From Eledone cirrhosa (taxonomy: Eukaryota), in NCBI GenBank assembly GCA_964016885.1, contig OZ024741.1:160084001-160148000 (forward strand): a stretch of DNA of 64,000 nt. The letters are read 5' to 3'. The notes beneath the pieces are model-generated. The model was not told the DNA's origin. It made no database searches and saw only the letters and a program-made list of their open reading frames with translations. Positions 7,942-63,130 of the stretch are shown here, piece by piece (position 1 is the first letter of the stretch; each line of letters opens with the position of its first letter). Made by a program: the position numbers and the translations under genes.

Positions 7942-8120
7942 TAGGAACATTTCAAGACGCCGACGGCAGAGCTCGAGCCGTTTCAACGGCTATTTCTGGA
8001 CGGCTCGAGCTCTGCCGTCGGGGTCTTGAACATTTTCCTATTACCCACTCTGCTACCCTAAGTATTGAGTACTCTGGTGCGTTATGGTCCACCTGGTTCC
8101 TTACCACATTTCCTTCGTTA
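7942..8120. repeat. Fold-back pair of family A half-hammerhead ends
   Basis: ttcaagacgccgacggcagagctcgagccg is mirrored by cggctcgagctctgccgtcggggtcttgaa; only the right arm carries the ACTC/GAGT hairpin (8047-8070). Confidence 0.8.
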
Positions 8121-8483
8121 TATATAATATATATATATATATATATATATATATATATATATATATATATATATATATACCTGATTAGTTCTATCGTTAC
8201 TTTGGTATATATTGTGTGTTAGATTCGCCTACCACAATGTTCGATTTGTCAAGCTATTTAAACGTATGTTATTACTCTAAGGCCCTATCTTATCGAGTGC
8301 TTTGTTAACTCATCATTTCATATAATTTACTTGCAAACCGCCGGAGATTCGATTTTACTGATTTCCAATTATATATATATATATATATATATATATATAT
8401 ATATATATATATATATATATATATATAATGGTTGCATTTTTTAAGGGTATGTCAATATTTATTTATAAAACTGATCTATATTA

Positions 8484-8548
8484 TATTTTGTCTGATGAAA
8501 ACACACCATAATTTAAATTGGTGTCCTTGAAATATGTATAATGAAATA
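8484..8548 (+). ncRNA. Type I hammerhead ribozyme (family D)
   Basis: TATTTTGT-CTGATGA-AAACACACCA..TGGTGTCCTT-GAAA-TATGTA-TA^ATGAAATA; homologous to 49791-49855. Confidence 0.8.
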
Positions 8549-9722
8549 AATATTGTTTTATAAATATAGTTTCCATTTGTTAATATCGTATATATATATT
8601 TCTTCCTAATAATCGTCTTTTTCTCCCTGTTTTCATATATATATATATACAAATTTTTGTACAGCATTAACGAAGCTTTAGGCTGCGGCTAAGCTAACGA
8701 ATGCAACACATAACGTATATCTTATAGCATACGATATACATCACATATAACATACAACATCCACGCTAGGTTTCTGTAAATCCGAGATCGACTAATTCCG
8801 TTTGCAGGGGTCTGCAAGTTAATGGCCTTTGACGGCAGAACAAAGGATTTACTTCGTCAACAAGTCTTGCGTTCTATAGCCTCAGCGGCTGTGTTTTCTA
8901 GCAGTAAATTTCACTATAGACAAGTGGTTTTCTCAAAGGGATGTAACCCCCGTTTTGGCGGTGAATTCGAAATTTTGGACAAAGGAATGATATTCCCTTA
9001 GACAAACCGAATTAAGCACTCAACCAGAAATATATATATATATATATATATATATATATATATATATATGTGTGTGTGTGTAACCCATGTGCAACCACTC
9101 AATTCTTCTCATATTTATATATATATATATGTGTGTGTGTGTGTGTGTGTGTGTGTGTGTGTGTGTGTGTGTGTGTGTGTGTGTGTGTGACCATATAAAT
9201 ATATATATATATATATAAAAACTGGCAACAGATGCAGGAACACTGTGGTCATCGGCTTTTGAAATGGACCTACACAATTCTGACCTCTCCCAACAATACA
9301 ACTGATGCATTCAGGTAACAGCGTTGAACGCTTTCCTGGTGTATTTGGGAGACGAATACAGGCACACACACACACACACACACACACACACACACACATA
9401 CATATATATATATATATATATATATATATATATATATATATATATATATATATATATATATATATATATATATATATGTATATATATGTATATACACACT
9501 AACTTTGCCTTTCGATAAAATAAAGCACCAGTAATGCACTGGAGTAGATTTAATCGACTTTCACACACACACACATACATACACATATATATATATATAT
9601 ATATATATATATAATATATAAATATATATATACATATATATATTATATATTATATATATATATGTATAAATTAATAAAGTAATGAATAAACAAAGAAACA
9701 GTTCCTTATATTTAAAAAAATT

Positions 9723-9862
9723 CATCATTTTACGATCGTTTCTAGGATATATATGTGTTAGAGTTGGTATGCATATTCTATAGATCTATCTAGAATATTT
9801 ATACAAACTATCAGAGGGAATATACATACCTACACATATATATGCTGTCTTCAGAAATAATG
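9723..9862 (-). ncRNA. Type I hammerhead ribozyme with a long (about 105 nt) stem II region
   Basis: CATTATTT-CTGAAGA-CAGCATATATATGTGT..ACACATATATATCCTA-GAAA-CGATCG-TA^AAATGATG. Confidence 0.8.
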
Positions 9863-60600: not shown

Positions 60601-62432
60601 TTTTACAAAATGAAAAATAACCGAGGTGTCCTACACGAGTGAAAGTATAAAGAAAAAAAGATGAAATCGAAAATGCAACTGGAGTCTTATTTAAAAAAAA
60701 TATATATATATTTATTTGGTTCCTTTACCGGTTTCGCAGTTCTTCTGCTTTTCAATATATATATATATATATATATATATATATATATATATATATATAT
60801 ATATACATATATATATATATATATACATATATATATATATATATATATATATCATACATCATTAAATTTGTCACCAATATACAAAATGAAAGATCGCTAA
60901 AATAAATTTAACTCAGATTAGCAAATAAATATAATGCATTTAATACAAAGTCACTGCGGGGTAGATCCCAATAATGTAATCTAAAATGAGAATACTTCAC
61001 AAGTATCTTTCCCTAGAACTAGAGTCTTAGTTACGAATCCTAAAACTAGCTTTAAATTGCCTAATTATAAACCCATCCCTACGGAGAAATGCTTATATAG
61101 TGTTTTTATTTTACTTTCCCTTGGACCCACTCCTCAGTGATTTTTTTATATGTTCTCTATGTATATGTATGTATATACCTGGATAGAACCAATTTGAAAC
61201 TAGTTAAAGAGCATTACTCAATAGAGTACTCGATACTTGGGTTAGTAAAGTATGGCTATATTACAAAGAGTAGGCGCCCGACGGCTGAGCTCTTGCCGTT
61301 TCAACAGCTGGTTCCAGACTATATATGTATATATACATACGTATATATATGTAGGACTAGCGTCCGAAACGTTAAGACCATGTTCCTGCATTTTCCAGCG
61401 TTAACTTAATATATTCCTTCCATATACTGTACCAGGCGTGTTGTTATTTCTGTTTATCTTTTACATACACACACAGACACGCGCACACACACACATATAC
61501 ACACACATATATATATATATATATATATATATATATATATATATATATATATATATATATATATATATACATATATATAAATATATATATATATATAACT
61601 TTCGTTCGGTGTTATATAAATTGGACTACCTTCCAGCTACATCATTATAAACGATGTTTCTTCTCTGAAGATTCTATGAAAATATCCCTTATAACAATAT
61701 ATATGCATACGTACACACCTACATGGATAGAACTGTTATATTGATATCAAGTAAATGAAGGGGGTACATTTTGTTTTTCAATGTATTGCCTTCTCCTCCA
61801 TTTAAGTTGCTTATATATATATATATATATGTGTATTGCTTCACCATTTTGTTTGTTTACCCTCGCGTCCCCTTTATTTACGTGTCCCAACGTCTTTTTT
61901 TAGCCGTTGCTCGCACCAACCGGAGGTATATGGTCTTTAAAGCGATGAAATGCCTATGATGGTTGGAAGATCACTGATGAAGGACAAACTTTTTTCATAT
62001 GTAACCCATTTGCAACTCCGCAGCGCCATTATTTTCATATATATATATATATATATATATATATATATATATATATATATATATATATATATATATATAT
62101 AAGGGTGAAAGCAGCGATTCTTGCTTAAACTTTAGTCTGTTATTTTAATAAATATTTGCTCTAGGATTCTTATATATTTATCCTTATCGAGCCCTCTTTG
62201 GATTTTAGTCTTCGCATTTATTATTATTACATTATATATATATATATATATATATATATATATATATATATATATATATATATATATATATATATTACCA
62301 CTCTACTACTCTAAGTATTGAGTACTCTGGTGCGTTATGGTCCATCTGGTTCCTTACCACAACTCCTTCGTTATATATATATATATATATATATATATAT
62401 ATATATATATTTATATATATATATATATATAT

Positions 62433-62612
62433 CTTTCACCGTATTTTTGACTAAAGGAATTTTAGCTTGATAACGGGGTTTAGAACCCTCAGATAAATGG
62501 AAAAAGATGAGTATTGACGTACATGGGAGCAATACTCATCTTTTTCCATTTATCTGAGGGTTCTAAACCCCGTTATCAAGCTAAAATTCCTTTAGTCAAA
62601 AATACGGTGAAA
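62433..62612. repeat. About 83-bp-arm palindrome next to (TA)n
   Basis: ctttcaccgtatttttgactaaagg..gagtattg is mirrored by caatactc..cctttagtcaaaaatacggtgaaag. Confidence 0.9.
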
Positions 62613-62989
62613 GCTATATATTTTCTAATTTCAAACTCGCTCACTGTTTCAAAACATACTTACTTGATATATATATATATATGTGTGTGTGTGGGTGTGT
62701 GTGTATGTATATATATATGTATATATTGGCAAAGAACAAAACAAAAACAAGTTCACAGGTTGTTTTCAATTAACTAATATAAACTGGATTAATTGTATAT
62801 ATGTATGCACGCATGCATGTATGTAGGCGCTTATTTATATATATGTTTGCATACACATAATCTTATAGAAATATGTATAGATAAAAAAACTATATACATA
62901 CATACACAAAAACATGGACACCCAAACACACACACACACTCACGTATATATATATATATATATATATATATATATATATATATATAAAT

Positions 62990-63130
62990 ATAGAATAGAA
63001 AACGAAAACTCAGTGATGCATCTGAACTCAATTTATTGTTTTCTATTCTATCATACTCTGCTCTGTAAGAGCATAGAGTGCTCAACCAACATACCGCCTA
63101 TGAAAGCATCATAGCTACCATCAGATACCC
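62990..63130. mobile_element. Family G short end (-) joined to long end (+) with hairpin at 63055-63079
   Basis: Matches 44455-44520 and 47550-47632. Confidence 0.7.

Follow-up and report, generated by a model that had tools for sequence, protein, structure and literature searches.

Twin bulged hairpins beside the two end classes of head-to-head Penelope-like element stubs in Eledone cirrhosa

Why should the two arms of a small inverted repeat end in different ways? The question is raised by a 64,000-nucleotide stretch of the Eledone cirrhosa genome (G000:C2:160084001-160148000, called here the window; an animal genome of 3.0 Gb), where (TA)n microsatellites are plentiful and short repeats lie head to head within them. 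A sequence-only reading of the window had described two end classes, short ends that stop at a TA just 5' of a hairpin and long ends that include this hairpin plus 40-70 nt, and all the junctions that it quoted are present as given. Its account of the long ends was incomplete: they, too, stop at a TA, one that shortly precedes a second hairpin. Both end classes obey one rule, a TA(T) placed shortly 5' of a bulged hairpin. Judged from their sequence, the repeats are end stubs of Penelope-like retroelements (PLEs) of the Hydra clade. In the reading that we prefer, with a rough probability of 0.7, the leader of these elements carries two tandem bulged hairpins, each of which would position the priming of one nicked target strand. 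The two TA sites are likely two start places of the reverse transcriptase (RT).

Two end classes and two hairpins

In the motif, TA(T) precedes a 4-bp basal stem and a short upper stem, with 2 bulged nt between them on the 3' side, and RCT follows. Basal stems are mostly GCTC/GAGC or ACTC/GAGT, with the covarying variants GTTC/GAAC, GCAC/GTGC and TCTC/GAGA. On the sense strand, the order is hammerhead, TA(T), hairpin 1, tail, TA(T), hairpin 2 and ATG, and the tails here measure about 55-115 nt. Hairpin 2 is outside the inserted DNA, though the long end sits beside it, and therefore must act in the template or the donor, probably in the template RNA. It was found in read-through copies, where a second hairpin of the same build follows 6-10 nt past the long end (family A, 9/30 loci; F, 12/30; D, 3/30; L, one copy). 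It is also present in B and in H (14/30 loci, with a 95-nt insert in H) and is weaker in the 483-bp family. The 30 loci of family P gave no read-through copy, nor did G and the A2-A4 subfamilies in the sequence examined, and hairpin 2 was unseen in all of these. The notion of family B as lacking hairpin 2 was dropped, as its GCAC/GTGC stem proved conserved. The copies concerned in the window, with further features described below, are as follows.

7944..8001, minus strand: family A short arm; its 3' end is a TA 8 nt before hairpin 1, followed by (TA)n.
8000..8118, plus strand: family A long arm; ends at a TA 6 nt before template hairpin 2, which is excluded.
8047..8070, plus strand: family A hairpin 1; 4-bp basal stem ACTC/GAGT, 2-nt 3' bulge, short upper stem.
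27260..27449, no strand assigned: family A long/short inverted pair.
28117..28309, long arm minus, short arm plus: mixed inverted pair, its arms from different A subfamilies.
52659..52850, no strand assigned: family A short/long inverted pair.
62293..62371, plus strand: family A tail-only piece within (TA)n, from the short-end TA to the long end.
25413 (long end) and 25683 (short end): family B pair; short end 15-17 nt ahead of hairpin 1, hammerhead core recognized by inspection.
49751-49864, minus strand (short arm), and plus strand to 50331 (long arm): family D pair.
39839 (long end) and 40024 (short end): family H pair; the long end passes into (TC)n.
41336 (short end) and 41852 (long end), no strand assigned: family F pair.
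54479 (long end) and 54654 (short end): family L pair; the long arm begins about 22 nt before hairpin 1.
62100..62232, plus strand: family L copy, long-ended.
62990..63140, no strand assigned: family G short/long pair; read-through copy not found, hairpin 2 unseen.
1141..1950: 483-bp tandem family; short end at 1141 (minus strand), read-through junction with both hairpins at 1620.
1855-1950: inverted arm of the 483-bp family; begins inside hairpin 1, long end at 1950, 8 nt before hairpin 2.
38655..39749, minus strand: second array of the 483-bp family, short end at 38655.
1981..2066, minus strand: family P tail-only piece; begins about 4 nt before the family P hairpin.
47868..48139: family P short/long pair; short end 13-20 nt upstream of the hairpin.
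36113..36853, no strand assigned: short/long pair of a further family with the GTTC/GAAC hairpin variant.
11226..12349, minus strand: broken 3' part of a Hydra-type RT/endonuclease open reading frame (ORF); tblastn pieces with 39-48% identity to the protein P0001.

To place the ends, we used 1.064 Mb, made up of the window and 1.0 Mb in four blocks from the four largest contigs; the extra blocks were picked by position regardless of content and the sample is not random. Loci from targeted searches (L001-L030, L131-L373) served as template sources, and joined the sample only for the haplotype, centre/arm-length and empty-site analyses. An end caller, in which a template path competes with a microsatellite path, was applied to 233 copies of 8 families. 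Microsatellite-bound ends were called in 216 copies, most of them entering (TA)n and a minority (CA)n, (TC)n or others. As many as 168/216 lie no more than 12 nt 5' of one of the two hairpins; free use of any TA would give 49 (P ~2e-67). By family, these ends number 71/77 in A (18.6 expected), 34/41 in L, 19/28 in D, 9/16 in F, 23/40 in B, 5/6 in H, 4/4 in the 483-bp family and 3/4 in N. The ends that fall outside are in part those of diverged subfamilies, scored with the wrong template. Family A is the sharpest case. When natural long copies were used as BLAST queries, the ends of 81 matches formed two sharp peaks, of 24 and 33. On the short side, the TA at -8 received 29 ends, and those at -5 and -18 one each; on the long side, the TA at +72 received 35 and that at +76 two, while six TAs of the tail received none. 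The sequence-only reading had asked whether ends simply track any available TA; with one TA used per site in family A and 168 ends where 49 were expected, they do not.

Two finer statements of that reading held in part. Tail-only pieces were said to start at the short-end TA, which is the case for the family A piece at 62293-62371, but that of family P (1981-2066) starts about 4 nt before its hairpin. Such pieces are scarce (1/78 family A copies); they can be long-primed cDNAs halted at an occupied short site, or result from later precise loss of the palindrome between TA stretches. Family B was said to end farther upstream, as is seen at 25683, but the ends of this family are spread rather than gathered at one site. 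Family B (e.g. window 55410-55491) often ends in (CA)n or (TC)n with the junction moved to matching template bases, which suggests target-dependent annealing.

The asymmetry of the pairs was then counted. Among 58 head-to-head candidates, 50 were accepted: 38 short/long, 3 short/short, 1 long/long and 8 with one unclassified arm; the pairing rule overlooks pairs with overlapping arms (e.g. 7944-8118), and 8/58 candidates were dropped. Short/long pairs thus make up 38/42 of the classifiable ones (p 2.8e-8 versus independent ends), and by inspection the other four appear to involve diverged tails, an interrupted copy or a larger duplication. A template-free search retrieved 167 local inverted repeats, of which 77 are asymmetric, 11 symmetric, 21 of other kinds and 58 without a microsatellite end. 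A hairpin follows the short end within 24 nt in 52/77 asymmetric pairs, compared with 7.9 in shuffles, and in 35 it lies at 6-9 nt. The claim that nearly every inverted pair shows one arm ending before a hairpin is therefore borne out for the asymmetry (38/42), but the hairpin was detected in just 52/77 of the template-free pairs. The 11 symmetric repeats were rejected as a real class, being mostly low-complexity sequence, mis-scored asymmetric pairs or another tandem family. Short/long asymmetry without a hairpin of the GCTC..GAGC type was observed at window 62433-62667 and in blocks C2 (387241, 412097, 336020, 180997) and C1 (20505, 60655). These hairpin-less families possibly belong to other Penelope clades with start signals of their own.

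The parent elements

A pattern search for family A copies continuing past the long end led to a tandem array of 3542-3543-bp units with intact ORFs. This array of about 20 kb comprises four full 3.54-kb units, a partial unit and a 1.08-kb inverted arm; its sense side ends long and the inverted arm ends short. An intact family A ORF is located on G000:C1 (L162:2919-5069, minus strand). Since at least 150 near-identical ORF starts are found in the genome, family A is young. By inspection, the 717-aa protein carries DKT, RWR, CxCx5C, CxxC and CxH, lacks CCHH, and shows YRDD and VIY..AYIG motifs; by eye it resembles published Hydra proteins. All Hydra diagnostics (DKT, RWK-like, CxCx5C linker, CxxC and CxH, no CCHH) were likewise recognized in P0001 by inspection. 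Pfam gave no family at its cut-off for the ORF pieces of the window or for P0001, and a PDB sequence search with the protein gave 0 matches; the identity as RT plus GIY-YIG endonuclease hence rests on the motifs. Families B, D, F, H and L also run into Hydra-type ORFs.

Hammerhead cores were recognized by inspection in B, D, F, L and N, with a variant core in A, which we take to be of the U3-A8 type; an Rfam scan of the window at gathering scores gave 0 matches. At L162:8740-8900 (minus strand), the family A core reads U-U-G-A-N-A-A for C-U-G-A-N-G-A; in this hammerhead the stem II loop is long and loop III is palindromic. Collectively, the traits of endonuclease-bearing (EN+) PLEs are found: a single RT ORF with C-terminal GIY-YIG, tandem pseudo long terminal repeats (pLTRs), an inverted 5'-truncated copy, a hammerhead and a tail at one end. 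A miniature inverted-repeat transposable element (MITE) or another DNA transposon was excluded, given the unequal arms and the existence of an ORF and tandem donors. The hammerhead cleavage site was also rejected as the origin of the ends: those of family A lie about 17 and 97 nt past it, and the arms reach 5' of the site.

The 5' ends of family A arms also cluster. Relative to hairpin 1, 42/65 lie at -60 to -70, 10 of them at -66, on the A of TTAGTC/TCAGTC, and 5 lie beyond -70. Family L has a weaker cluster (8/36) at TTAGTT. The TTAGTC/TCAGTC motif resembles what we take to be the initiator consensus. The family A cDNAs may thus mostly run off the 5' end of the RNA at this initiator-like motif, 66 nt before hairpin 1, though this is more weakly inferred than the priming sites. 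Such run-off would be the reason why inserts mostly measure 60-140 nt per arm, and why full-length copies would need a tandem read-through transcript. The putative transcription start sits inside the family A hammerhead, so a transcript starting there would have only half of the ribozyme. In the 37 family A inserts taken for the empty-site analysis, (TA)n flanks both sides with a median perfect run of 20 nt each; no empty target site was recovered for them.

Several side observations concern related arrays. The 483-bp family (1141-1856, 38655-39749) carries both hairpins and no ORF; it is non-autonomous and retrozyme-like, and still keeps the end rule. At L280/L281 (G000:C2:7215683 region), three bare family F tails of 104 bp stand in tandem, with the long-site TAT joined to the short-site TAT, which looks like repeated re-priming across the stretch between the two sites. 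5' ends at the short site also occur in L170, L192 and this bare-tail tandem of L280. In L163, the 5' part of the array at G000:C1:91.49 Mb, dozens of head-to-tail 52-bp ORF pieces lie in the gap between the inverted arm and the first sense unit; they reflect either repeated template jumping where the arms meet at the centre or an artefact of assembly. A long array at G000:C4:80498919-80505604, with a 30-bp period (or multiples), includes the family H long-end sequence. A 310-bp tandem family forms long inverted arrays with symmetric (TA)n ends (C2 430347-432793, C3 74894-76317, C3 113562-118232). The window further holds pieces of L1/Tx1-type non-LTR elements at 2750-6380 (plus), 12350-16150 (minus) and 37365-38500 (plus), with endonuclease and RT similarity by inspection and 74-83% alike.

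The motif in relatives

Alignment of five family proteins retrieved 80 metagenomic loci with 34-42% identity, of which 59, in 46 clusters, have enough leader. Exact GCTC..GAGC hairpins occur twice in 29 of these clusters, once in 12 and not at all in 5; several leaders with fewer than two are truncated or interrupted. With a looser motif, two hairpins are found in 30/46 clusters, while dinucleotide shuffles gave about 1 and ORF controls 0. The hairpins are mostly 55-96 nt apart, and hairpin 2 is mostly 19-46 nt 5' of the ATG. Among the 40 full ORFs of 58 checked, CxCx5C is present in 39 and DK[TS], CxxC..E and CxH in 40 each; RW[RK] is also in 40/40, but this motif was in the search pattern.

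A set of 83 hairpins was assembled from 70 metagenomic ones and 13 of the 16 from the Eledone genome. Their upper stems pair only in the register with a 2-nt bulge (95, 70, 72 and 57% for successive positions, versus 74, 44, 41 and 39% shuffled), and the first upper-stem pair is C-G in 55 and T-A in 21. TA starts peak at -6 (35), -7 (20) and -8 (23), against a background of about 10; the leaders are AT-rich, with TA present in 62% of random leader windows. Natural ends were seen just 5' of hairpin 1 in four metagenomic loci (L384, L404, L411, L421) and of hairpin 2 in L390, and L451 has one at -15. In contigs of three independent runs (two organisms, one of them perhaps close to the source of the assembly; not shown to be RNA), loose ends enter (TA)n at both sites, the counts at the long and short sites being 279/68 in X2, 15/7 in X5 and 1/0 in X6. 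No relative was found in viral contigs.

Published consensus sequences carry the motif as well. By eye, in the available supplement of PMC8557442, the sea-cucumber Hydra-1_Ajap has both hairpins at its 5' end, before the ATG, and the 3' ends of Hydra-2_Ajap, coral Hydra-2_Amil and copepod Hydra-1_Crog consist of hairpin 1 plus tail. The 3' ends of Hydra-1_Ajap, Hydra-1_Amil and Hydra-1_Obim are without a hairpin. Across the four sequences that carry the motif, 3' ends stop either directly short of hairpin 1 or beyond hairpin 1 and the tail.

Priming at two sites, rival explanations and known systems

The proposed course would be the following. Each hairpin would fold in the RNA and hold one RT/endonuclease molecule, and the endonuclease would cut both strands of a (TA)n target. 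A nicked 3' end would then pair over about 3 nt with the UA(U) located 6-9 nt 5' of its hairpin, and cDNA synthesis from the annealed end would proceed away from the hairpin. One target strand, primed at hairpin 2, would give the long end with hairpin 1 and tail, and the other, primed at hairpin 1, the short end. The two cDNAs, usually of one subfamily and probably from one RNA, would be joined 3' end to 3' end, yielding the head-to-head insert. The sequence-only reading had suggested hairpin-positioned priming on a UA. This fits the fixed spacing, the TA peak at the 83 hairpins and the short junctions: exact context was available for 44 (33/77 pairs are without it), of which 35 share at least 2 bases and 32 at least 3 bases with the repeat. 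It was incomplete in treating one hairpin only. A more general form of the proposal, in which tandem RT-binding stem-loops in at least four phyla each align a 3-nt primer site in a telomerase-like way, with two RTs on one RNA and run-off cDNAs joined, is tentative and in our estimate falls somewhat short of even odds.

Several points weigh against this course of events. Hairpin folding and protein binding are predicted. The partner shuffles used for upper-stem pairing ignore relatedness, and the basal stem is mostly invariant and therefore carries little information on pairing; since the excess of G-U over A-C in the upper stem is weak (17 vs 9), pairing does not settle which strand, RNA or cDNA, folds. 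A hairpin is undetected in 25/77 asymmetric pairs, about 14 of which are variants by eye and the rest hairpin-less families, and the 12-nt end window was fixed after family A had been seen. Family B ends are scattered over -21 to -3 and -25 to -5. Annealing is not obligatory, since 9/44 short junctions have 0-1 base in common with the repeat and some ends at the same site pass into (TC)n or (CA)n. For the Poseidon element PAc, the start is reported to be at a site without homology to the target (PMC11167929, available text). Just 6/38 long arms stop near the short site as classical one-RNA twin priming predicts; the remaining ones need strand displacement or two RNAs. Finally, a search for RNA support of the initiator reading yielded one RNA run (0.05 share, contigs only), with nothing on the leader.

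How do other explanations fare with the same data? The simplest would be that ends follow any TA of an AT-rich leader, or reflect later deletion between TA microhomologies. Although TA occurs in 62% of random windows, the P value of ~2e-67, the six family A tail TAs without ends and the presence of the same ends in young, near-identical arrays refute it for the two main classes, where its chance is negligible; for tail-only pieces it is plausible, as these would be what remains when a palindrome is lost precisely between two TA stretches. It is also very unlikely that the two starts are real but that each end has its own RNA and complex, with no fixed division of labour. Mixed-subfamily pairs would suit such independence, and two RNAs would explain without strand displacement why most long arms fully overlap the short arm. 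Independent choice, however, predicts that half of the pairs are short/short or long/long, and 4/42 were seen.

A third possibility is priming once, at hairpin 2, with the cDNA folded back at its 3' end and copied, the second strand stalling or being cut ahead of a cDNA fold of hairpin 1 and being joined by TA homology to the remaining target end. We consider this unlikely. It would agree with the arms being mostly of one haplotype (21/30 pairs against 4.2 by chance, a parse in which clearly mixed pairs were absent), self-priming has been proposed for rotifer PLE palindromes (PMC3846280), and PMC11167929 cites D. virilis as a case where the endonuclease requires the tail for recognition. Yet the six long arms that start at or past the short site could not template the short arm. 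Three perfect-palindrome centres have no loop, and the short arm reaches further 5' in 10/34 pairs, despite a parsing artefact that shortened 11 short arms, so that either arm may be the longer. Mixed-subfamily pairs do occur in the template-free search (window 28117-28309; block C3 124738). Moreover, the motif and its distance are alike at both ends, and the cDNA does not contain hairpin 2. A role of GCTC..GAGC as a DNA signal, either an inverted site with a spacer or a hairpin extruded from donor DNA or from a DNA intermediate, is likewise improbable; here GIY-YIG would cut the adjacent TA, and the ends would be cuts and not RT starts. For the basal stem and the 3' ACT, the sequence itself is kept from phylum to phylum, which would suit recognition by a protein; the endonuclease favours AT-rich DNA, (TA)n or short ends are inserted just 5' of hairpins in some read-through copies, and Craig et al. 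attribute the tail to endonuclease resolution (PMC8557442). Against this, the half-sites are anywhere from 5 to about 95 nt apart, the upper stem covaries and the bulge is on one side only, all of which suits a single strand rather than a duplex site, and PAc tail ends were mapped in vitro as RT starts (PMC11167929). A cut site in the inserted DNA itself, the alternative offered by the sequence-only reading, is disfavoured because the long end obeys the same rule at hairpin 2, outside that DNA.

Priming at two hairpins can now be compared with known systems, the papers being cited from the available portions of their text. The Hydra clade of C-terminal EN+ PLEs was described by Craig et al. 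2021 (PMC8557442), who list the octopus member Hydra-1_Obim. The elements studied here share with it the protein motifs (with CxxC and CxH flanking the conserved E/N), the pLTR hammerhead, the (TA)n targets and the tandem and inverted structure. Hydra-clade elements generally tend to be <3 kb (PMC8557442), whereas the family A unit is 3542-3543 bp with a long 3' region. In that article, as available, 'hairpin' is absent from the main text and 'stem-loop' from the supplement text, although the deposited consensus sequences carry the motif. The one-sided tail and head-to-head pLTRs of EN+ PLEs were already known, as was an initiator-like motif in the pLTR (PMC3846280, PMC8557442); here the one-sidedness is counted (38/42) and tied to two RNA motifs, and antisense self-priming is unnecessary.

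The closest parallel is PAc (Poseidon, Anolis carolinensis; Frangieh et al. 2024, PMC11167929), for which the tail lies in vitro between two RT starts; PAc nicks and extends both target strands, a dimer is predicted, and there is no homology at the start. In both cases two sites bound an optional tail, and uncleaved RNA, the template of PAc, would be the template here too, since family A arms run on for about 35-45 nt beyond the point of hammerhead cleavage. The PAc starts are placed at or close to a single AC-rich stem-loop of the ORF, and its tail is 30-40 nt long (PMC11167929). Here the two starts would instead belong to the 5' leader; each precedes a hairpin copy of its own, a conserved TA(T) agrees with the target sequence, and the tails measure about 55-115 nt. 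The non-homologous start of PAc is not matched here, with at least 3 common bases at 32/44 junctions and TA at -6 to -8.

Two further likenesses reach beyond PLEs. In L1 twin priming, primers from the two target strands use one RNA and generate an inverted 5' segment, the internal primer relying on short homology; its second site varies, and there is hardly any overlap between the arms. In the present pairs a hairpin fixes the second site and most arms overlap fully, with 6/38 being L1-like, and our literature search found no paper connecting L1 twin priming with the Penelope mechanism. Telomerase, a sister RT clade, starts at an internal template with a short primer alignment region beside a protein-bound stem of its RNA. 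The elements here differ in having two motifs in tandem and primers that would be made by the endonuclease, with neither a fixed template boundary nor regular repeat addition observed. The twin motif is not described in the literature searched, including the available text of PMC4209133, PMC13282606 and bioRxiv 10.64898/2026.07.22.740005, a search that covered few subscription papers and excluded supplementary figures and Repbase notes. The twin-hairpin rule and the short primer homology hence appear new, while a tail between two RT starts was already known.

Penelope-like RTs are the sister group of telomerase, and their RNA recognition and one-sided head-to-head inserts have so far been addressed by one in vitro study. 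If true, the tandem stem-loop rule would explain together why there is a tail and why it is one-sided, why the inserts are short head-to-head palindromes and why the donor has to be a tandem. A clade-wide motif, placed twice at a fixed distance from the ends, names the likely RT-binding element and offers a minimal RNA for structural work, with an intact, recently active element at hand. For annotation, it follows that the abundant small palindromes of (TA)n-rich animal genomes would be retrotransposition stubs, not MITEs.

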